Assembly: GCF_024502345.1 (NCBI RefSeq)
Contig: NZ_JALDNN010000001.1
Length of the DNA: 64,000 bases
Direction: 5' to 3' (one strand)
DNA from: Escherichia coli
GTDB lineage: Bacteria > Pseudomonadota > Gammaproteobacteria > Enterobacterales > Enterobacteriaceae
The translations under genes and the position numbers were made by a program. Shown here piece by piece: positions 42,960 to 55,405 of the stretch (positions are counted from its first letter, which is position 1; each line of letters begins with the position of its first letter). A model generated the notes under the pieces. The model was not told the DNA's origin and did not search any database. It saw nothing but the letters and a program-made list of their open reading frames with translations.

Positions 42960-44120
42960 CTAAAGCTGGCGCAGGCGTTCAGCGGCTGCCAGCAACGTCG
43001 ATTCCTTCTTGGCAAAACAGAGACGAATCAGTTTATGAGGGAAGGGATCGGCGCAAAACACCGATAGCGGAATCGCCGCTACGCCGTGCTCCTGCGTCAG
43101 CCACTGGCAAAACTCAACATCATCCAGGGTAGATACGGCGCTGTAATCCACCAGCAAAAAGTATGTACCTTCACACGGTAAAATCTCCAGCCGGCTTTCA
43201 TTTAAAGCATTCACCAGAATATCGCGCTTCTGGCGATAAAAGTCCGGTAACGCAAGATAATGCTCAGGTTCTGCACGTAGCATATCCGCAATTGCCAGCT
43301 GTGCCGGGGTATTTACCGAAAATGTCAGATACTGATGTACCTTGCGAATTTCGGCACTGATGGGCGCTGGCGCTATGCAATAACCCACTTTCCAGCCGGT
43401 CATATGATAGGTCTTGCCAAACGATGACACCGCCACTGCCCGCTCACGCAGCTGCGGATGCGCCAGCACACTGGCATGGCCCTGTTGTGAAAAGTTGATG
43501 TGCTCGTAGACTTCATCGCTAATGACAAAAATCTCGTGCCCGGCGATCGCCTGCCACAAAGCGGCGAAATCAGCCTGCTGCCAGACAGTTGCACTGGGAT
43601 TATGCGGAGTGTTGAGGATCACCAGTCTGGTGCGCTCGCTTAACAATGCGGCAAATTCCTGCCAGTCAACGCGAAAATGCGGTGGTTGCAGTGCCATACG
43701 CTTCACTATTCCCCCAGAAAGCGCGATAGCGGGAGCGTAACTGTCATAGCTGGGATCAAAACAAATCACTTCATCGCCATTGCGCACCAGTGCGGTAATC
43801 GCCGCGTATAACGCTTCCGTCGCCCCTGCCGTTACGGTGATATCGCTATCGGCATCTGGTTGATAGCCATACAAACGTTCCGTTTTCTGAGCAATCGCCT
43901 CGCGCAAGGCCTGCACGCCGGTCATGGGCGCGTATTGGTTTGCCCCCTGGGCAACGTGGTACGCCAGCCGCTCCTGTAAATAGCGCGGACCATCAAAATC
44001 AGGAAAGCCTTGCGACAGGTTAATCGCCTGGTGTTGCTGCGCCAGCGCGCTCATCTGGGTGAAAATAGTGGTGCCAAGTTGTGGAAGTTTGCTTTGTGGA
44101 ATCAGAGGGTTATTTGTCAT
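42960..44120 (-). CDS. ybdL: PLP-dependent methionine aminotransferase
   Basis: 386 aa; class-I aminotransferase with PLP-lysine motif (SFGKTYHMTGWKVGY). Confidence 0.93.
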   Translation of the reverse strand: MTNNPLIPQSKLPQLGTTIFTQMSALAQQHQAINLSQGFPDFDGPRYLQERLAYHVAQGANQYAPMTGVQALREAIAQKTERLYGYQPDADSDITVTAGATEALYAAITALVRNGDEVICFDPSYDSYAPAIALSGGIVKRMALQPPHFRVDWQEFAALLSERTRLVILNTPHNPSATVWQQADFAALWQAIAGHEIFVISDEVYEHINFSQQGHASVLAHPQLRERAVAVSSFGKTYHMTGWKVGYCIAPAPISAEIRKVHQYLTFSVNTPAQLAIADMLRAEPEHYLALPDFYRQKRDILVNALNESRLEILPCEGTYFLLVDYSAVSTLDDVEFCQWLTQEHGVAAIPLSVFCADPFPHKLIRLCFAKKESTLLAAAERLRQL

Positions 44121-44228
44121 TTTTATTGTACCTGACGAAGTTGCGTGTTGAAGGCACTATAACACGATGCTAGTATTTGGCAATCAAGACGTTTAGATGT
44201 CTAAATAAAACAATAAGGACAACACAAC

Positions 44229-45317
44229 ATGCCTCACAATCCTATCCGCGTGGTCGTCGGCCCGGCTAACTACTTTTCACATCCAGGAAGTTTCAATCAC
44301 CTGCACGATTTTTTCACTGATGAACAACTTTCTCGCGCGGTGTGGATCTACGGCGAACGCGCCATTGCTGCGGCGCAAACCAAACTTCCGCCAGCGTTTG
44401 GACTTCCAGGGGCAAAGCATATTTTGTTTCGTGGTCATTGCAGCGAAAGCGATGTACAGCAACTGGCGGCTGAGTCCGGTGACGATCGCAGCGTGGTGAT
44501 TGGCGTCGGCGGCGGCGCACTACTCGACACCGCGAAAGCCCTCGCCCGCCGTCTCGGTCTGCCATTTGTTGCCGCTCCAACGATCGCCGCCACCTGCGCC
44601 GCCTGGACACCGCTCTCCGTCTGGTATAACGATGCCGGACAGGCGCTGCATTATGAGATTTTCGACGACGCCAATTTTATGGTGCTGGTGGAACCAGAGA
44701 TTATCCTCAATGCGCCGCAACAATATCTGCTGGCGGGGATCGGTGACACGCTGGCGAAATGGTATGAAGCGGTGGTGCTGGCTCCGCAACCAGAAACGTT
44801 GCCGCTAACCGTGCGACTGGGGATCAATAATGCGAAGGCCATTCGCGACGTCTTGTTAAACAGTAGCGAACAGGCGCTGAGCGATCAGCAAAATCAACAG
44901 TTAACGCAATCATTTTGCGATGTGGTGGATGCCATTATCGCCGGAGGTGGAATGGTCGGTGGTTTGGGCGATCGTTTTACGCGTGTGGCGGCGGCTCATG
45001 CCGTGCATAACGGTCTGACCGTGCTGCCGCAAACCGAGAAGTTTCTTCACGGCACCAAAGTCGCCTACGGAATTCTGGTGCAAAGCGCCTTGCTGGGTCA
45101 GGATGATGTTCTGGCGCAATTAACCGGGGCGTATCAGCGTTTTCATCTGCCGACTACGCTGGCGGAGCTGGAAGTGGATATCAATAATCAGGCGGAGATC
45201 GACAAAGTGATTGCCCACACCTTGCGCCCGGTGGAGTCCATTCATTACCTGCCAGTCACGCTGACACCAGATACGTTGCGTGCAGCGTTCGAAAAAGTGG
45301 AATCGTTTAAAGCCTGA
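44229..45317 (+). CDS. ybdH: iron-containing alcohol dehydrogenase family oxidoreductase (hydroxycarboxylate dehydrogenase HcxA)
   Basis: 362 aa with GGGALLD nucleotide-binding motif. Confidence 0.9.
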   Translation: MPHNPIRVVVGPANYFSHPGSFNHLHDFFTDEQLSRAVWIYGERAIAAAQTKLPPAFGLPGAKHILFRGHCSESDVQQLAAESGDDRSVVIGVGGGALLDTAKALARRLGLPFVAAPTIAATCAAWTPLSVWYNDAGQALHYEIFDDANFMVLVEPEIILNAPQQYLLAGIGDTLAKWYEAVVLAPQPETLPLTVRLGINNAKAIRDVLLNSSEQALSDQQNQQLTQSFCDVVDAIIAGGGMVGGLGDRFTRVAAAHAVHNGLTVLPQTEKFLHGTKVAYGILVQSALLGQDDVLAQLTGAYQRFHLPTTLAELEVDINNQAEIDKVIAHTLRPVESIHYLPVTLTPDTLRAAFEKVESFKA

Positions 45318-45326
45318 CGTGCAAAT

Positions 45327-45524
45327 TTAGCAGCAGCGCGCGCCGCCTTTTCCACCGTAGCGCGCGTCCTGCCGCTCACGGAAAAACTCCTCGTAGGTCA
45401 TCGGCGTTTGATCGGGATGGTTAACCCGCATATGTTCGACATAGTTGTCGTAATCAGGCATACCAATCATCAGCTTCGCCGCCTGACCTAAATATTTTCC
45501 GGCTTTTGCCAGTGAATCAAACAT
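45327..45524 (-). CDS. ybdD: DUF466 small protein, cotranscribed with cstA
   Basis: 65 aa [33 protein letters not shown]... Confidence 0.88.
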
Positions 45525-45556
45525 CTTGGCCTCCGCTAACCATGTTGCTGAAAGAG

Positions 45557-45593
45557 TGCCGGATGCGGCGTGAACGCTTTATCCGGCCTACAA
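45557..45593. repeat. REP (repetitive extragenic palindrome) element
   Basis: gccggatgcggcgtgaacgctttatccggcctaca matches the canonical E. coli REP consensus. Confidence 0.75.
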
Positions 45594-45613
45594 ATGCTAT
45601 CAACGCACTCGGT

Positions 45614-45700
45614 CAGTCCCCTCGCCCCACCGGGGAGAGGGTTAGGGTGAGGGGGAACCCTCGGCGCCATGCCAACATTCGCCAACATTCTCCCTCACTC
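45614..45700. repeat. GC-rich extragenic repeat element (ccc ctc gcc cca ... ggg tga ggg type), copy 1
   Basis: gtcccctcgccccaccggggagagggttagggtgaggggg; near-exact reverse complement of 53090..53131. Confidence 0.6.
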
Positions 45701-45705
45701 TGACT

Positions 45706-47811
45706 TTAGTGCGCGCCTTTCGCCTGCGCCACGATCTCCTCGACATTTTCCGGCATCGGCTCATACGGCGTTTCTTTCGCCGTTGGCTTCGGATCTTTCA
45801 ATGCCGCAAGTGCCGTCTTAATCGAGAACAGTGCCAGAACCACCACGACCACCATAAAGAAGATGGTTAACCCAGCATCCAGACGGTTGTTGAACACCAG
45901 TTGCGCCAGTTGTGACTCAGTATACTGCGACGGAATATTGCCGCTGTCGATCATTGCCTGGAACTTGTTAGCAATCGCCAGGAAGCCGACTTTCGCATCC
46001 GGGCTAAACGCTTTCTGCCAGCCTGCGGTCAGGGTACAAATCAGCAGCCAGGCCGTTGGTACCAGCGCCACCCAAGCGTAACGTTGACGTTTCATCTTGA
46101 ACAACACCACGGCACAGAGCATCAGCGCCATCCCTGCCAGCATCTGGTTGGCAATACCAAACAGCGGCCACAGAGTGTTAATACCGCCCAGCGGATCGAC
46201 CACACCCTGATGGAGGAAGTAGCCCCACGCCAGCACGCACAGCGCTGTTGCCAACAGGTTAGCAGGCAGTGAATCGGTCCGTTTCAGGCCCGGAGAAACC
46301 ACGCCCAGCAGATCCTGCAACATAAAGCGCGCAGCACGCGTACCTGCATCCACCGCTGTCAGAATAAACAGTGCTTCAAACAGAATGGCGAAGTGATACC
46401 AGAACGCTACATCCATCATACCACCCAGCGCACCGTGCAGGATGTAAGCCATCCCCACCGCCAACGTCGGCGCACCGCCCGCACGGGAAATGATCGACTG
46501 TTCACCCACTTCGCTGGCAATCTGGTTGAGCGTATCCGGAGTAATCGCAAAGCCCCAGCTACTCACCACTTGCGCGGCAGAAGCGACCACATCCGCCGTC
46601 CCTGCCGGAGCCAGCACCGCCATCGGGCTGTTCATGGCGAAGTAAACGCCCGGATCGATGATACAGGCGGAAACCAGCGCCATAATCGCCACGAAGGATT
46701 CCATTAACATTCCACCGTAGCCGATAAAACAAGCCTGCCCTTCGTTCGCCAGCATCTTCGGCGTGGTGCCGGAAGAGATCAGCGCATGGAAGCCTGACAC
46801 CGCGCCACAGGCGATGGTGATAAACAGGAACGGGAACAGATTACCGGTCCATACCGGGCCAGTGCCATCGACAAATTTGGTCAGCGCAGGCATGGTCAGC
46901 GTCGGACGCATAATCAAAATGCCTACCGCCAGACCGACGATAGTCCCGATTTTCAGGAAGGTAGAGAGGTAGTCACGCGGGGCCAGCAGTAACCACACCG
47001 GCAGCACCGCCGCCACAAAACCGTAGCCCACCAGCATCCAGGTCAGCTGCACGCCGGTAAAGTCAAAGTACGGTGCCCAGGTCGGGCTTTCTGCCACCCA
47101 GCCGCCAGAGATAATGGCGAAAATCAGGAATACCAGACCGATGACCGACACTTCACCAATACGCCCCGGACGCAGATAGCGCAGGTAGATTCCCATAAAA
47201 ATCGCCAGCGGAATGGTGAACGCAACGGTATACGTTCCCCACGGGCTATGAGTCAGGGCTTTCACCACGATCATCGCCAGTACTGCAAGGATAATGACCA
47301 TGATCATAAAGCAGGCCACCAGCGCTATCACCCCGGCGGTTGGCCCCATCTCTTCTTTGACCAGCTCACCCAGCGAACGACCGTCACGGCGCGTAGAAAC
47401 AAACAGCACCATAAAATCCTGCACCGCACCGGCGAGAACCACCCCGGCGAGCAGCCAGATCATCCCCGGCAGGTAACCCATTTGCGCCGCCAGTACCGGA
47501 CCCACCAACGGACCTGCTCCGGCAATGGCCGCAAAATGGTGACCGAACAGCACTTTCTTGTCCGTCGGCACATAGTCCAGCCCGTCGTTATGGCGCACCG
47601 CTGGCGTCATACGCGTCGGGTCAACCGCCAGCACATTTTTGGCGATATACAACCCATAAAAACGGTAAGCGATCAGATAGATACAGACCGACGCCACCAC
47701 AATCCACAGCGCGTTGATCTGTTCCCCACGATTTAAAGCAATGTATCCCAGAGCAAATGCTCCCATTACAGAGAGCACTGTCCAGACGAGGTATTTCCCT
47801 GATTTGTTCAT
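45706..47811 (-). CDS. cstA: carbon starvation protein A (peptide/pyruvate transporter family)
   Basis: 701-aa polytopic membrane protein upstream of ybdD. Confidence 0.95.
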   Translation of the reverse strand: MNKSGKYLVWTVLSVMGAFALGYIALNRGEQINALWIVVASVCIYLIAYRFYGLYIAKNVLAVDPTRMTPAVRHNDGLDYVPTDKKVLFGHHFAAIAGAGPLVGPVLAAQMGYLPGMIWLLAGVVLAGAVQDFMVLFVSTRRDGRSLGELVKEEMGPTAGVIALVACFMIMVIILAVLAMIVVKALTHSPWGTYTVAFTIPLAIFMGIYLRYLRPGRIGEVSVIGLVFLIFAIISGGWVAESPTWAPYFDFTGVQLTWMLVGYGFVAAVLPVWLLLAPRDYLSTFLKIGTIVGLAVGILIMRPTLTMPALTKFVDGTGPVWTGNLFPFLFITIACGAVSGFHALISSGTTPKMLANEGQACFIGYGGMLMESFVAIMALVSACIIDPGVYFAMNSPMAVLAPAGTADVVASAAQVVSSWGFAITPDTLNQIASEVGEQSIISRAGGAPTLAVGMAYILHGALGGMMDVAFWYHFAILFEALFILTAVDAGTRAARFMLQDLLGVVSPGLKRTDSLPANLLATALCVLAWGYFLHQGVVDPLGGINTLWPLFGIANQMLAGMALMLCAVVLFKMKRQRYAWVALVPTAWLLICTLTAGWQKAFSPDAKVGFLAIANKFQAMIDSGNIPSQYTESQLAQLVFNNRLDAGLTIFFMVVVVVLALFSIKTALAALKDPKPTAKETPYEPMPENVEEIVAQAKGAH

Positions 47812-47991
47812 AGTTGTTATCCGTGTGCGTGTCCATAGAGATGTTACATTTTGTTTCTATAACATCTTTGTACAATTTAACAACACGGCAACCATGTAAA
47901 TCGGAGTTGAAACCAATATTTAACTTAACAATGTTAACTCGATCACTCCGTTAACCGAGTTTTCCTGCAATCTCATTTAATTCTGTCGGGC

Positions 47992-49153
<1,162 letters not shown>

Positions 49154-49154
<1 letters not shown>

Positions 49155-50011
49155 TATTTCACCTCGCGGGAGAGTAGCTTCCACCAGGCGTCGATGGTCG
49201 GGTTTTTCGCCAGCATGACAAAGTCGATATCACCATGCACTTTGCGCCAGCGCGCCGCCAGCGCCATCATGCGCACCGAATCCAGACCGTAGTCGATCAG
49301 GTTGTCGTCATCGAACGGTTCATCGGACTCGTCCAGCAACGGCAGGATAACCTCACGCAGCGCCGCTTTGCTGGCGGGGACAGGTGCTGGCAGTAATTCT
49401 TCAGTCATCACCACCCGGCCAGACCGCCCGGCCACATATTTCAGCGACATCAAATGCTCGTCACGGCTGAAATCGGCCAGCGCATCCGCCACCATAAACG
49501 GTTTAATATCGCGCATAAATGCGTCGGTTGCGGTGGTCATACAGCCAATGTGGGCATATACCCCGGTAATAATCAGCTGGTTACGTCCACTCTCTTTGAG
49601 CATTTGCTCCAGCGGAGAACGATGAAACGCGCTGTAGCGCCACTTCACCAGCACCGTGTCGTCGGCATCTGGCGTCAGGCGATCCACCACCTTTTGCTGT
49701 TCCGGCGAACGGGTCAGGCCCGGCCCCCACATATCATTCAACAGCGCCCGATCTTCATCGCTCTGCTCTTTCGGCTGGGCGGTGTAATAAACCGGGATAT
49801 TGTGCTGTTTGCAGTAGTCGCGCAGCGCAGCAATATTCGCGATCACCTGCTCCATCATCGGGCAGTTCTCGCCCCAGAAGCTGACAAAATAGTCCTGCAT
49901 ATCATGGATTAACAACGCGGCACGTTGCGGTTCAAAGGCCCAGTCAACTTTATTCTGCGGAATATCGTGAGACTCCGGCAGTGCGTAAGCCTGTAATTTT
50001 GGAATAGCCAT
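49154..50011 (-). CDS. entB: isochorismatase / aryl carrier protein
   Basis: 285 aa; C-terminal carrier-protein serine motif (DYGLDSVRMM); overlaps entA start. Confidence 0.96.
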
Positions 50012-50024
50012 CGTGTTCTCTCCT

Positions 50025-51635
50025 TCAGGCTGATGCGCGTAACGCCAGCCACTGACGTAATTGTTTTTTATCGACTTTCCCGACCGCCGTCAGCGGAAGT
50101 GAATCCACACACTCCACGCGATCCGGTAATTTAAATTCGGCAATACCCTGTTCACGCAGGAAACGACGCACCTGCACCGCGCGCAGCGGCTCTTTTACCA
50201 CCAGATAAGCACAGCTTTTTTCGCCCATCAGCTCATCTTCCATGCTCACCAGTGCGGCATAGATCACCGCCGGATGGCGCAGCAGCAGGTTTTCGATCTC
50301 TTCGGCAGCGATCTTCTCGCCGCCACGGTTGATCTGATCTTTCTCGCGCCCCTGCACGGTGATGTAACCCTCTGGATCAATAGAGATCAGATCGCCGGAA
50401 CAGTAAAAACCGTTGGCATCAAAGGCACTGGCATTGTGCTGCGGACTTTTGTAATAACCGCGGAAGGTGTACGGCCCGCGCGTCATCAGGCGTCCAACTT
50501 CCCCTTGCGGCAGTGGATTTCCTTCAGCATCAGCAACCCATACTTCATCGTCCGGACACATTGGGTAACCCTGGGTATGGATAATTTTCTCCGCGCTATC
50601 ATCAAGTCGGGTGTAGTTCACCAGCCCTTCCGCCATGCCAAACACCTGCTGCAACAGGCAGCCAATCTCAGCGGGAATACGCGCCGCAAGGGTGGCTGAA
50701 AGACGTGCGCCGCCGACCTGTAACAGTTTCAGCGAGGCAAGCTGCGCCCGGCTTTCACCTTCGGTCAGCGCCTGCAACCACAGGCTGACTGCCGGTGGCA
50801 CCAGCGCGGTGACGTTCACCTGATGTTTTTCAATCAATGGGAAGCAAAGCGTGGCGCTGGGATCGGCCGCCAGAACAACCGTTCCTCCGGCAAGAAAGAC
50901 GCCCAGCGATCCCGGCGAACTCATGGCGTAGTTATGAGCCGCCGGGATCGCGCACAGGTAGCGTGTCTGTTGTGTGAACTGACAAATCTCGACGCTACGA
51001 CGCACGCTGTAGTAGTAGTCGTTATGAGTGCGCGGGATCAGTTTCGGTGTGCCGGTGGTGCCGCCGGAAAGCTGGAAATAGGCCACTTCATCAGCAGGTG
51101 ATGGCGTGGCAGTAAAATCCTCAGCCGGATGGTTAATCGCATCCTGCAAGTTATGCTCACCGCTGTCGTTGTGCAGTTGCACCACGCGAATGGAGGAATG
51201 TTCTGTGACGAAAGTATTGAGGAAATCATCCCCGCTAAACAGCGCATGTTGGCGATCGGCAATCAGCAATGCGGGTTCAATCTGGCTGGCATAGGCGTTC
51301 AGTTCACTACGCTGATGGCTGAACAGCGCCAGCACCGGCGCAACGCCCAGTTTCAGCAGCGCGAAAAAGGTAATATACAATTCAGCGACGTTACCCAGTT
51401 GTACCAGCGCGGTTTCACCAGGTTTAATGCCCTGACGGCGTAAACTACACGCGAGGTTATCCGCCGCCTGATTCAGCTCCCGGTAACTCAACTGTCGCTC
51501 GCCGTCGATAACCGCGATGCTGTCACTCGCAGCGTGGCGAGTCAGAATGTCGGTCAGCGGCAAATCCTGCCAGTAGCCTTTTTCCCGATAGCGACGGGCA
51601 AACTCTTCCGGCCAGCGGGTGAATGGAATGCTCAT
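50025..51635 (-). CDS. entE: 2,3-dihydroxybenzoate-AMP ligase
   Basis: 536-aa adenylate-forming enzyme (SGGTTGTPK motif). Confidence 0.96.
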
Positions 51636-51644
51636 CCTCGCTCC

Positions 51645-52820
51645 TTAATGCAATCCAAAAACGTTCAACATGGTAGAAAGTTTGACGCCTGTTTCGCGCC
51701 ACTCACCCAACGGTGACGACGCAGGCACAATCCCCGCTCCGGCAAACAGACGCACCTGATTTTCCCGCAGCTTCGCGCAGCGGATGGTCACCACCCATTC
51801 GCCGTTACCTTCGCTGTCACACCAACCCACAATGCCGCCAAACAGTTCGCGGTCGAATGGCTCCAGTTCAGCAATAACCTGGGTCGCGGCCTGATGCGGG
51901 AAACCGCTCAGCGCGGGGGTTGGATGCAGCAGACAGGCCAGAGTCAGTGCGTTTTCTTGCGAATTCGCTTTACCTTCAAAGGGAGTTGCGAGATGCCACA
52001 GCGTCGGCGTGGTAATCAATTGTGGAGAGGAGGGAACGTGTAACTCACTACTGCGTTCGCGCAGTACCTCTTTCATCGCCTGAGTCACCAGTTCATGTTC
52101 ATGGCGATCTTTTTCTGACGCCAGCAGACGATTACCCGCTTCGCGATCGAGCACTTCATCCGGCTGACGACGCGCGGAACCGGCTAACGGAATGGAGCTA
52201 AAACGCTCGCCGTCTTTACGTAGCAGCAGTTCCGGGCTGGCCCCCAGCAGGACGCCACCATCAGCCAGCGGGACATGGAAGTTGTAACTAACCGGGTTTT
52301 GCGCAATCAACCGTTCCAGCAATACGCCACTATCAATGGCGGCGTCAGTGGTGATATCAATCAATCGTGACAACACCACTTTGTCGACCTGCGGCGTGGC
52401 GGTAAGTGCGGCGGCGCGGGCAACCATCTGTTCAAACGTGGTTTGTTCAGGAATTGCCTGGCGTTCCACCACGTTCAGCGACTGGCTGCGGGTAAAACGG
52501 CGGGCTGAGGTCTGTTTTTCCTGGCGGGAGAACGACTGCCAGGATTCGGGAATATACAGCGACGAAGGCTGACGTGGATCGAAGGGAATCGCCCCGACCA
52601 TCACCGGATTTTTGATGCCCTGCGCTTTGGCATCGGCAAACAGCGCGGCGAGTTTTTGCTGGAAGGGACTGTCGGGCGAATCCCCGTTCACAGCCGGTTC
52701 ATCGAAGCGGGCGAAACATCCTGACGTCGTAAAACTGCGGTACGGCGACATAAAGAAAAAGCGATTGGGCGCAAGTGTTGCCATGGTCTGCTGTACTTCC
52801 TCAGCCAGTGACGTATCCAT
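51645..52820 (-). CDS. entC: isochorismate synthase
   Basis: 391 aa from [18 protein letters not shown]. Confidence 0.95.
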
Positions 52821-52848
52821 ATCATCCTCCACAAAATGATAAAGGCTT

Positions 52849-52867
52849 TAATAATGATTATCATTTA
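52849..52867. promoter_or_regulatory. Fur box in entC / fepB divergent promoter region
   Basis: aataatgattatcatttat is a close match to the GATAATGATAATCATTATC consensus. Confidence 0.55.
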
Positions 52868-53026
52868 TATTTTCGGTCGCTAACCTAAAAGCAAACGCGC
52901 ACTATGTCAACTCTTGAGGTAACGCAATCTGCAACTCGGGGTTGCATCTGGTTGTGGTTACAATGAAAATGAGAAGCATTATTGATGGATTCGCATAAGC
53001 GCAATGTGATGTCCTGCGCCGTTCTG

Positions 53027-53131
53027 CCCCCTCTCCCTTCCAGGGTGAGGGCTGGGGTGAGGGTTAATGTTCGCACCAGTGCTGGCTGTTCCCCTCACCC
53101 TAACCCTCTCCCCAAAGGGGCGAGGGGACGG
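53027..53131. repeat. GC-rich extragenic repeat element, copy 2, with an adjacent partial copy
   Basis: cccctcaccctaaccctctccccaaaggggcgaggggac (reverse complement of copy 1) preceded by ccctctcccttccagggtgagggctggggtgaggg. Confidence 0.6.
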
Positions 53132-53194
53132 ATTGTGCGCTTTGTCGAATTTGTCATTACGCCCTTAACCTTATTAATAACAGGAAGCTGATTT

Positions 53195-54151
53195 GTGAGA
53201 CTCGCCCCGCTCTACCGCAACGCCCTTCTAGTAACAGGACTTTTGCTTTCAGGAATAGCCGCAGTTCAGGCCGCTGACTGGCCGCGTCAGATTACTGACA
53301 GCCGTGGCACACATACACTGGAAAGCCAGCCGCAGCGTATTGTTTCCACCAGCGTCACCCTGACCGGCTCACTGCTGGCGATTGATGCTCCGGTGATCGC
53401 CAGCGGCGCGACCACGCCGAATAACCGCGTCGCGGATGACCAGGGCTTTTTACGCCAGTGGAGCAAGGTGGCGAAAGAACGCAAACTGCAACGGCTCTAT
53501 ATCGGCGAACCGAGCGCCGAAGCCGTTGCCGCGCAAATGCCGGATCTGATTTTAATTAGCGCAACCAGCGGGGATTCGGCGCTGGCACTGTATGATCAGC
53601 TTTCCACCATCGCCCCGACATTAATCATCAATTACGACGACAAAAGCTGGCAGTCGCTGTTAACGCAGCTTGGCGAAATTACCGGGCATGAGAAACAAGC
53701 GGCAGAGCGGATTGCACAGTTTGATAAGCAACTGGCAGCGGCGAAAGAGCAAATCAAATTACCGCCGCAGCCGGTCACTGCCATTGTCTATACCGCCGCT
53801 GCACACAGTGCCAATCTCTGGACGCCGGAATCAGCACAAGGGCAGATGCTGGAACAACTCGGCTTTACGCTGGCGAAGTTGCCCGCAGGGTTAAACGCCA
53901 GCCAAAGCCAGGGCAAACGCCATGACATCATTCAGCTTGGTGGGGAAAATCTGGCTGCGGGGTTAAACGGTGAATCGCTATTCCTGTTCGCTGGTGATCA
54001 GAAAGATGCCGATGCGATTTATGCCAATCCACTGCTCGCGCACCTTCCCGCAGTACAAAACAAGCAGGTTTATGCGCTGGGAACCGAGACGTTCCGTCTG
54101 GATTACTACAGCGCCACGCAAGTGCTGGAACGACTTAAGGCGCTGTTTTAA
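53195..54151 (+). CDS. fepB: periplasmic ferric enterobactin-binding protein
   Basis: 318 aa, GTG start, signal peptide [26 protein letters not shown]. Confidence 0.95.
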
Positions 54152-54154
54152 GCA

Positions 54155-55405
54155 TTAACTGTCAGACGCTGTCACCTGCGGCGGCGTCTGGCGAAAACGT
54201 CGCAACTCCACCAGCACCAGCAATAACAACACGCCGATAATCAACAAACCAAAACCGCTCGCGCTTGCGGAAGCAACCGGTGTCATCATCGCGCCCAAAC
54301 CACCCAGCAGCGCCGCGCCTATGGCATCGCCCGTCACGTTCTGCGCCGTCCACAAACCGTTAATCCGCCCTAACATCGCTTCCGGGGTTTGCGTTTGCAG
54401 CATTGTATATTGCAGCAACGAACTAACCGCGCTCAGCCAGCCGAACAGCGCCAGACAAACCACGCCTAAAATCCACATCGGCATCAGGCCAAACAGACCA
54501 ATGGCGAGGAACGATCCCAGCGTGGAGAGCAGCATCAATAACCCTGGTCGCGCACTATGTGCCAGCTTCCCGCTGGTTAACGCACCAATAGCCGCGCCGA
54601 GCGGGATCGCCGCGTAGAGAAAACCAATCTGTGCCGCTGACATCTGCCAGTTGTCAGCCAGCGCCGGATACAGTACCCGCACCGCGCTCGCCATCGTCAA
54701 TAAACCACCCAGCAGCGCAATCCCGCCCACCAGCGGGCTGGCAAGCAGAAAACGAAATCCTGCCAGTAATGATTTCAACGGATGCTCACGCGGCTGCGGT
54801 GGCGGTGGCAACGCCGGAAGGCTTAACAACGGTAGCAAGGTAATAAACGTGCCCGCCGCCGCCAGCCCGTAGTTCCAGGCTACGCCACCGGTCGCCAGCA
54901 ATAAACCGCCAATCATGGGCGAAATCACCGACCCCAGACGCACGGTCAACATGGTGATCGCCCCGGCCTGCATTAAGTTTTCACGCCCTACCAGTGCTGG
55001 TGTCGCCGCCAATAGCGCCGTAACGCCAAGCGATGCGAAAAAACCATCCCATAAACCAAGTAAATAGATTGCCAGCAATGACGGCTCCGGCAGCAGTGCA
55101 TTAAGGCACAGTCCAATGAAGCCAATGCCACAGGTGCCGCGCGCCAGCAAAATCACTTTTTTGCGCTCATAGCGATCCGCCAGCACACCGCCAACCATCA
55201 GGCCAACAAACATCGCGCCGCCGGTCAGCGTCACCGAAAGCCCCACCTGCCAGGTAGAATGCGTCATCATCTGGATCTGCACCGGCACCGCGACGCCGAG
55301 CAAACCCAGAGACACAATTGAGATAAAACGAGCGAGGAATACTGCGCGAAACGCCGGGTGCGTTTTCAACAGGCTGAGGTTAAGCAGCCAGGATTGTTTA
55401 TTCAT
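54155..55405 (-). CDS. entS: enterobactin exporter (MFS)
   Basis: 416-aa 12-TM ORF convergent with fepB. Confidence 0.93.

Follow-up and report, generated by a model that had tools for sequence, protein, structure and literature searches.

A type-A BoxC element beside a single REP in the cstA-ybdD spacer of Escherichia coli, and its relation to an inverted copy in the fepB leader

The 64-kb stretch of Escherichia coli DNA analysed here (hereafter the window) carries a REP palindrome followed by a GC-rich motif in the spacer separating ybdD from cstA, and an inverted near-copy of this motif some 7.4 kb away, between entC and fepB. The initial annotation of the locus considered that the two copies bracket the cstA-ybdD-entHABEC block and could mediate its inversion, mRNA stabilisation or protein binding. 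This arrangement raises the questions of what the motif is, and whether its two distant copies act together on the genes lying between them. Comparative analyses identified the GC-rich motif as a type-A copy of BoxC (also called PIT element or TMECO), located beside an ordinary single REP. Both belong to already known repeat families, and the finding is real but ordinary; as it was flagged, it matters little, consisting of the rediscovery of two textbook E. coli repeats, REP and BoxC/PIT/TMECO. The overall interpretation that we consider very probable is that this is a member of the dispersed BoxC family lying next to the REP and having no joint role with the distant copy, the BoxC elements having presumably arrived by insertion and now being near-neutral passengers.

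Comparison with the annotated K-12 and other E. coli genomes gave the gene order hcxA(+), ybdD(-), cstA(-), entH-A-B-E-C(-) and fepB(+), and the gene context described initially matches that of annotated K-12. Both loci carrying the motif are intergenic, the first one being the 181-bp cstA-ybdD spacer, with the cstA stop codon at 45706-45708, and the second one the 374-bp entC-fepB spacer. Both are also transcribed spacers represented in the sense RNA, as the cstA-to-ybdD intercistronic region and as the 5' leader of fepB, respectively.

The cstA-ybdD spacer contains a single REP, GCCGGATGCGGCGTGAACGCTTTATCCGGCCTAC, at 45558-45591 (+). It shows one mismatch over 34 positions with the REP consensus, for which the sequence used for scoring was taken from established knowledge, whereas no such match is expected by chance, and it is the sole consensus-grade match in the 64-kb window. 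The canonical REP proposed at this position is thus a genuine one. A scan against Rfam gave a partial match to naRNA4, a family derived from a REP cluster, over positions 45547-45588 (32.2 bits versus a gathering score of 59.5, E=0.012). As other REP/BIME elements of enterobacteria, this sequence is an imperfect palindrome of about 34 nt, extragenic and located within an operon spacer. A BIME is a cluster of REPs (at least two, in alternating orientation), whereas only one REP head motif was found in the whole window and the element is a lone REP instead. The adjoining BoxC belongs to a family unrelated to REP; spacers are nevertheless often common to the two, a REP being present within 75 nt of four of the 13 BoxC copies that were aligned.

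The GC-rich motif spans positions 45616-45655 and contains a 36-nt core, CCCTCGCCCCACCGGGGAGAGGGTTAGGGTGAGGGG, at 45619-45654 (+), which starts 27 bases past the REP. The inverted near-copy of this core is found at 53091-53126 (-) in the entC-fepB spacer, and the coordinates initially reported for the motif and its near-copy were exact or within a few bases. According to a repeat finder, the inverted arms are 83% complementary over 54 nt, with mismatches located mainly in a 3-4 nt loop. Two occurrences of the 20-mer GAGAGGGTTAGGGTGAGGGG were counted in the window, for an expectation of 0.00 derived from 100 shuffles, and the resemblance of the two copies is therefore significant and not a product of chance. 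Each BoxC copy is composed of three blocks, CCCTCNCCC, GGGAGAGGG and GGGTGAGGG. A regular expression for this three-block architecture, i.e. a C-rich CCCTCNCCC followed by a G-rich GGGNGAGGG and a second G-rich GGGNGAGGG, with short loops between them and a total length of 34-37 nt, matched exactly three sites in the 64 kb: 45619-45653 (+), 53029-53063 (+) and 53092-53126 (-). The copy at 53029-53064, also in the entC-fepB spacer and absent from the initial annotation, is of type B and in direct orientation relative to the 45619 copy. It lies 27-28 nt from the 53091 copy, and the two constitute an inverted pair.

The family was traced by a full-text literature search with the literal sequence of the motif, which led to the study of Holder et al. 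2015 (PMC4666352). According to this study, BoxC was first recognized among E. coli repeats in 1991-92 (Leung 1991; Bergler 1992) and was redescribed by Hoyne & Maher in 2000 (also 2002) as the PIT ("potential intrastrand triplex") element, TMECO being the name given by Holder et al. (PMC4666352). Their Table 1 reports 23 TMECO copies in MG1655, all intergenic and comprising five A+B inverted pairs, type A being characterized by a TTA linker and type B by a CNG linker, and the number of conserved loci listed in their study is 62 (PMC4666352). Both copies of the entC-fepB spacer are letter-for-letter identical to entries of this table. The 53091-53126 copy (CCCTCGCCCCTTTGGGGAGAGGGTTAGGGTGAGGGG, type A mm, on the - strand), which is the inverted copy named initially, corresponds to TMECO #7 (624,579-624,614, type A with one mismatch), and the 53029-53064 copy (CCCTCTCCCTTCCAGGGTGAGGGCTGGGGTGAGGGT, type B, on the + strand) to TMECO #8 (624,676-624,641, type B) (PMC4666352). 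The surroundings of the latter are identical to K-12, the entC-fepB spacer of the window being 100% identical to that of K-12 over 241 nt aligned. These exact matches to catalogued copies prove right the early guess of a boxC repeat; RSA, which had been mentioned as an alternative family, was set aside as this identity settles the affiliation.

The cstA-ybdD copy, which can be written CCCTCGCCC-CACC-GGGGAGAGGG-TTA-GGGTGAGGGG (45619-45654, +), was recognized both by the regular expression and by the "type A mm" pattern (one mismatched pair) of Table 1 of Holder et al. (PMC4666352), from which it differs in the loop only (CACC). Unlike the two other copies, it does not appear in the MG1655 table, an omission explained by the point-mutated third block that K-12 carries at this locus (GGGTGAGAGGG); the form found intact in the window strain is also present in E. 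coli C. Apart from this difference, the window copies share with the published elements the three-block sequence, the type A and B variants, the intergenic site and the A+B inverted pairing (PMC4666352). No RNA family covering BoxC was retrieved by an Rfam scan of positions 44000-55000 at E<=1, which returned, besides the REP/naRNA4 match, only chance microRNA and frameshift-element matches over the hairpins.

In comparison to the published core of 34-37 nt, the conserved unit is longer. An alignment of 13 type-A copies (eight K-12 singles, the A-sides of four pairs and the cstA-ybdD copy of the window) revealed that the type-A unit extends 5' of the 36-nt core by an arm some 20-38 nt long (...AAAGCGCAC..GGTCAGT); in four of the 13 copies, this arm reaches a common end, TGATGACAA. 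About 14 nt of spacer after the third block, AACAGGCCAGCA, also belong to this conserved unit. In the cstA-ybdD spacer, the 5' arm AAATGCTATCAACGCACTCGGTCAGTC occupies positions 45592-45618 (+), with the REP abutting its outer end; this arm is semi-conserved among the 13 type-A copies and accounts for the 54-nt length of the inverted match mentioned above. Moreover, four tail-to-tail A+B pairs (hrpB-mrcB, fepB-entC, ygfF-gcvP and alx-sstT) have their arms and spacer in common, and each pair therefore constitutes one composite unit.

The cstA-ybdD locus presents, in this order, the REP, the A arm, the A core, the spacer and then the third block only of a B copy. The spacer of the element (45655-45691, +), as read from the sequence, includes a tandem duplication of GCCAACATTC (45671-45680 and 45681-45690) and can be aligned with the corresponding sequence of the K-12 pairs (GCGAACATTA-CCCTCAC versus GCCAACATTCT-CCCTCAC). 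The third-block remnant of the inverted type-B copy (CCCTCACTCT on the + strand) is located at 45692-45701 (-), aligns with the start of the inverted B in the four K-12 pairs and ends 4 nt from the cstA stop codon. A shorter, 112-bp allele of this spacer was identified in 1189 of 5426 E. coli genomes (~22%), including the type strain ATCC 11775. It contains no REP and no BoxC hairpin, and keeps diverged outer parts of the element. In Citrobacter koseri and C. freundii, the cstA-ybdD spacers are 60 and 113 bp long, respectively, and contain neither REP nor BoxC.

Using a sensitive search, the motif was found in 5425 of 5426 complete E. coli genomes, with a median of 18 places per genome (range 2-31). 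The genome-wide count suggested as a check in the initial annotation accordingly describes BoxC as a multi-copy dispersed repeat, with roughly 18-23 copies per genome, and the idea of a special inverted pair does not withstand it: the two copies in question are two of the three present in the window alone. Structurally, the 53091 copy is paired with its neighbour at 53029. The likeness of the 45619 and 53091 copies reflects their membership of one dispersed family and no joint action on the genes between them, and the bracketing of the enterobactin genes is a coincidence produced by a many-copy family. Even the bracketing itself has to be reworded, since the copies do flank cstA-entHABEC, as proposed, but ybdD lies outside the bracketed segment, the first copy being located between ybdD and cstA.

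That homologous or site-specific recombination between these copies inverts the 7.4-kb cstA-entHABEC segment would be in line with their inverted orientation and with their 83% complementarity over 54 nt, and Holder et al. allow that distant TMECO sites could recombine in principle (PMC4666352). The disposition of two inverted repeats flanking a multi-kilobase segment is also shared with invertible segments such as fimS and hin. The comparison of the block orientation across strains argues strongly against such an event. With a 10.5-kb query running across both copies and required to match in one place at >=80% coverage, when an inversion would limit the coverage to ~71%, 5417 of the 5425 matching E. 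coli genomes showed a colinear block and no inverted arrangement was encountered; the ybdD/cstA junction was intact in all the genomes considered for it (5419/5419). The longest exact run common to the inverted copies is 23 bp, a length close to the lower limit for RecA-dependent exchange, and the K-12 annotation of the block includes no recombinase gene. The locus thus departs from fimS and hin by the lack of a recombinase in the block, the lack of a second orientation in 5417 genomes and the origin of its repeats from a many-copy family. An inversion would in addition part ybdD from cstA, and fepB from its Fur-regulated promoter, as positioned from the footprint discussed below. As a regular event, inversion is effectively excluded, and we consider a role of the copies in mediating it to be extremely improbable.

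The BoxC pair of the entC-fepB spacer is included in a 183-bp imperfectly palindromic segment (52982-53164, +) of the fepB 5' leader, which displays a presence/absence polymorphism. Of 5426 E. coli genomes, 2720 (~50%) matched a 186-base query (52983-53168) over >=80% of its length. The entC-fepB spacer of strains MY504, RM13514 (O145:H28) and B1S11 measures 188 bp instead of 374 bp, and what is missing corresponds to positions 52982-53164 plus one TTA. C. koseri and C. freundii, reached through their FepB homologues, have spacers of 187 and 186 bp that align base for base with the short E. coli allele. The empty junction, in the short E. coli alleles as in both Citrobacter, reads GCA-TTA-AC and the filled one GCA-TTA-[183 bp]-TTA-AC, so that the comparison of the two alleles delineates the left (52979-52981) and right (53165-53167) copies of a putative 3-bp target-site duplication, TTA. 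Relatives of FepB at 90-91% identity retrieved from metagenomes were accompanied by the E. coli long allele, unchanged, and were uninformative as outgroups. Because the segment is flanked by TTA and is lacking in Citrobacter and in one half of the E. coli genomes, these alignments are most simply read as an insertion event within the Escherichia lineage that duplicated 3 bp. In the fepB leader as in the cstA-ybdD spacer, laboratory K-12 has the long allele. In view of these alleles, both loci are polymorphic and the repeats that they carry are dispensable.

Coordinates of the Fur footprint of the fepB promoter are available in Table 3 of PMC2189734. Converted to NC_000913.3 and then to the window, and checked against Fur-box-like sequences, they would place this footprint at 52958-52988. 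It would therefore straddle the left junction of the inserted segment, which would lie within the fepB transcript, close to its start, and border the operator.

Absences at TMECO loci were read by Holder et al. as deletions driven by a transient triplex, and no duplications were described (PMC4666352). Conversely, at fepB-entC the absent allele appears to be the ancestral one and the present allele carries the TTA duplication, a situation not described in their study (PMC4666352). From the empty site and the duplication, insertion seems to be the origin of one BoxC pair at least; were this general, the published view of these elements as sources of instability would be reframed.

The generalization according to which the A+B BoxC pair is the core of a MITE-like element of ~180 bp, inserting at TTA and duplicating it as a property of the whole family, seems to us rather doubtful. 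On such a reading, the fepB-entC copy would have been acquired by insertion in a particular lineage, ~13 nt downstream of the fepB transcript start and bordering the Fur operator. Similarly to bacterial MITEs (ERIC/IRU), the 183-bp segment is small, non-coding, imperfectly palindromic, intergenic and strain-variable, with an empty site in the outgroup and a short TTA duplication, and it folds, as DNA, into one long hairpin (z=-4.5). It differs from them by its two arms, which are only ~52% identical outside the BoxC cores, and by a duplication found at one locus only. No clean empty site or duplication was found at five other BoxC loci (alx-sstT, ygfF-gcvP, hrpB-mrcB, fimH-gntP and adk-hemH). 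Replacements or ragged deletions were observed there instead, at alx-sstT in BL21, at ygfF-gcvP and adk-hemH in O157:H7, at hrpB-mrcB in Eco889 and at fimH-gntP in O55:H7. The alx-sstT locus of strain KS21 showed still another outcome, the pair being collapsed between two CCCTCTCCC direct repeats into a simple hairpin, which is of the type named "palindrome effect" by Holder et al. (PMC4666352). A clean empty site accompanied by a duplication thus comes from a single locus and therefore does not establish a general insertion mechanism. We know of no partner transposase of the BoxC pair. Should these pairs nonetheless be MITE-like, half of E. coli would have had their fepB leader extended from ~40 to ~225 nt, and insertion polymorphism would explain some of the published "genomic instability" at TMECO loci. 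Under this assumption, the presence of the motif, tail-to-tail pairs included, in Myxococcota, Alphaproteobacteria and Gammaproteobacteria would suggest that a mobilising enzyme recognising this structure is widespread.

The secondary structures of the two loci were predicted with a nearest-neighbour folding considering hairpins only. The RNA of the cstA-ybdD spacer is predicted to form three successive hairpins (z=-2.6), i.e. one in which the B remnant pairs with the A third block, the BoxC hairpin and the REP hairpin, and the RNA of the fepB leader one long hairpin (z=-4.6). As DNA, single-copy BoxC hairpins are not significantly more stable than shuffled sequences (z from -0.15 to -1.96), and hairpin energy alone is consequently no marker of BoxC elements. 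A motif scan detected no terminator-like site at either locus, and the only promoter-like matches of a promoter scan at both loci are in the region of the entC Fur box. REP elements are known to stabilise upstream mRNA segments. Since both loci are transcribed and are predicted to fold strongly, the mRNA stabilisation proposed initially, or another effect of RNA structure, is plausible.

These characteristics are compatible with a modest scenario in which the BoxC elements would have arrived by insertion and would persist as near-neutral passengers. The RNA or single-stranded DNA of both loci is predicted to fold into stable hairpins, which at most might provide the cstA-ybdD and fepB transcripts with additional secondary structure, buffering degradation or decoupling cistrons as REPs do, and internal direct repeats may render the spacers prone to small deletions. 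A more definite role as a cis-acting RNA can be envisaged, where the BoxC hairpin and the REP of the cstA-ybdD spacer would block 3'-to-5' exonucleases or partly decouple the two cistrons, setting the CstA:YbdD ratio, and where the 165-nt hairpin of the fepB leader would modulate the stability or the translation of the mRNA when iron is limiting. The presence of both elements inside transcription units and in the sense RNA (deduced for fepB from the position of the Fur footprint), their strong predicted folds and the stabilisation of upstream mRNA by REPs established in the literature are in favour of this role, as is the requirement of both CstA and YbdD for pyruvate uptake (PMC5847655). It is harder to reconcile with the frequency of alleles devoid of these structures, 22% at cstA-ybdD and ~50% at fepB, and with Citrobacter, which lacks both structures. 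Neither locus displays a terminator-like motif, and earlier experiments summarised by Holder et al. detected neither promoter nor terminator activity, nor any effect on RNA polymerase (PMC4666352). On balance, such a regulatory function appears unlikely.

The role favoured by Holder et al. is of another nature, as a transient intrastrand triplex or G-quadruplex formed in single-stranded DNA during replication or transcription would stall polymerases and raise local mutation, deletion and rearrangement, the main role of the element being then to generate variation (PMC4666352). It relies on the formation in vitro of a very stable purine-motif intrastrand triplex by the isolated G-rich strand, obtained with consensus oligonucleotides of types A, A mm, B and B mm, on the stop imposed on a polymerase by this triplex in primer extension, and on a variability around TMECO loci higher than in control spacers (PMC4666352). 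Our data bring some elements in the same direction: both loci of the window are polymorphic in E. coli, an internal deletion took place between direct repeats of the pair in KS21, spacers are replaced at other BoxC loci, and GGGAGAGGGTTAGGGTGAGGG also fits the quadruplex pattern G3N3G3N3G3N3G3. However, the triplex was undetected in duplex DNA and by in vivo DMS footprinting (PMC4666352). The "missing" allele of fepB-entC is moreover the empty site of the outgroup, which indicates an insertion polymorphism at this locus rather than a triplex-induced loss, and the entC-fepB spacer is 100% identical to that of K-12 over 241 nt, whereas the closest E. coli genomes differ by ~2% in the adjacent cstA region. 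Variation as the main role of the element is thus an explanation that we hold as possible but not probable, and a near-neutral passenger acquired by insertion remains our preferred reading. Whichever role they may have, the long and short alleles of the fepB leader and of the cstA-ybdD spacer constitute natural controls for the expression of the iron-uptake and pyruvate-uptake genes.

Beyond E. coli, the G/C-rich motif has been reported in >260 genomes (PMC4666352). A pattern scan of species-representative genomes, whose listed matches come from a handful of genomes and do not represent a taxonomic census, agrees with this report as to the abundance of the motif in distant phyla: dozens of full three-block copies are among the matches listed, in Candidatus Contendobacter, Afipia, Archangium and one MAG, and those listed for Archangium include tail-to-tail BoxC pairs. 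Archangium, Microcystis and Neisseria are among the BoxC-rich genomes. The exact recurrence of the three blocks in unrelated phyla does not fit easily with a strictly neutral passenger, and may reflect a conserved constraint on structure or on recognition by a protein.

The BoxC copy of the cstA-ybdD spacer (window 45619-45654) presents an intact motif in the window strain and in E. coli C. The corresponding copy of K-12 (L001 11060-11100) is altered by one base relative to the window, its third block reading GGGTGAGAGGG, and this single-base change accounts for the omission of the locus from the published list of 23 TMECOs of MG1655. On the 3' side of the BoxC core, the spacer also displays a perfect tandem duplication of GCCAACATTC (window 45671-45690), which is shared with K-12 and E. 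coli C and missing in a shorter, 112-bp allele of the spacer.

This 112-bp allele, represented by E. coli MY504 (L127 1526-1637), contains neither the REP nor the BoxC hairpin and was found in 1189 of the 5426 E. coli genomes, including that of the type strain. It retains, immediately upstream of ybdD, a small hairpin (GCCCTCT...AGAGGGC) which is common to Citrobacter (cstA-ybdD spacers of C. koseri, L135 2635-2694, and C. freundii, L136 2577-2689) and whose place is taken by the REP in the common allele. The REP and BoxC families tend to occupy the same intergenic spacers: in the set of 13 type-A BoxC copies that was inspected, 4 have a REP at most 75 nt away (those of sequences L144, L146 and L148, and that of the window, with its REP at 45558-45591).

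Compared with the 5,426 complete E. coli genomes, the best identity of window 44000-54500 was 99.0% over 10.5 kb, and that of the cstA region 98.2%. The entC-fepB spacer is nevertheless identical between the window and K-12 across the 241 nt aligned. Either the collection lacks the source strain (or a Shigella), or the region is mosaic. In E. coli O145:H28 RM13514, an additional 423-nt ORF annotated as hypothetical is inserted between cstA and entH (L128 4124-4546); it is absent from the window and from K-12.

Once converted to window coordinates, the Fur footprint published for the fepB promoter is placed at 52958-52988, across the left end of the putative 183-bp insertion (52982-53164), so that the 6-7 bp of this footprint farthest from the promoter are not the same in the long and short alleles of the fepB leader.

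Holder et al. (PMC4666352) report that plasmids yielded no copy of the motif; our motif search of complete E. coli genomes retrieved 68 plasmid places matching BoxC overall. A 155-kb E. coli plasmid (NZ_CP074792.1) carries a perfect 38-nt BoxC match at 1627-1664 (hits H37, H45, H69 and H85).

Among the matches listed from the pattern scan of species-representative genomes (L007-L126), copies of this three-block motif abound in Candidatus Contendobacter, Afipia, Archangium and one MAG (e.g. L073 6348-6471, L079 3844-3951 and L021-L048). Within these listed matches, those of Archangium include tail-to-tail pairs, approximately 85-100 nt apart, and those of the MAG include two near-identical 46-nt subfamilies, starting with GTTGCCCCCTCCCTCGCCC and GTTGTTTGCACCCTCGCCC.
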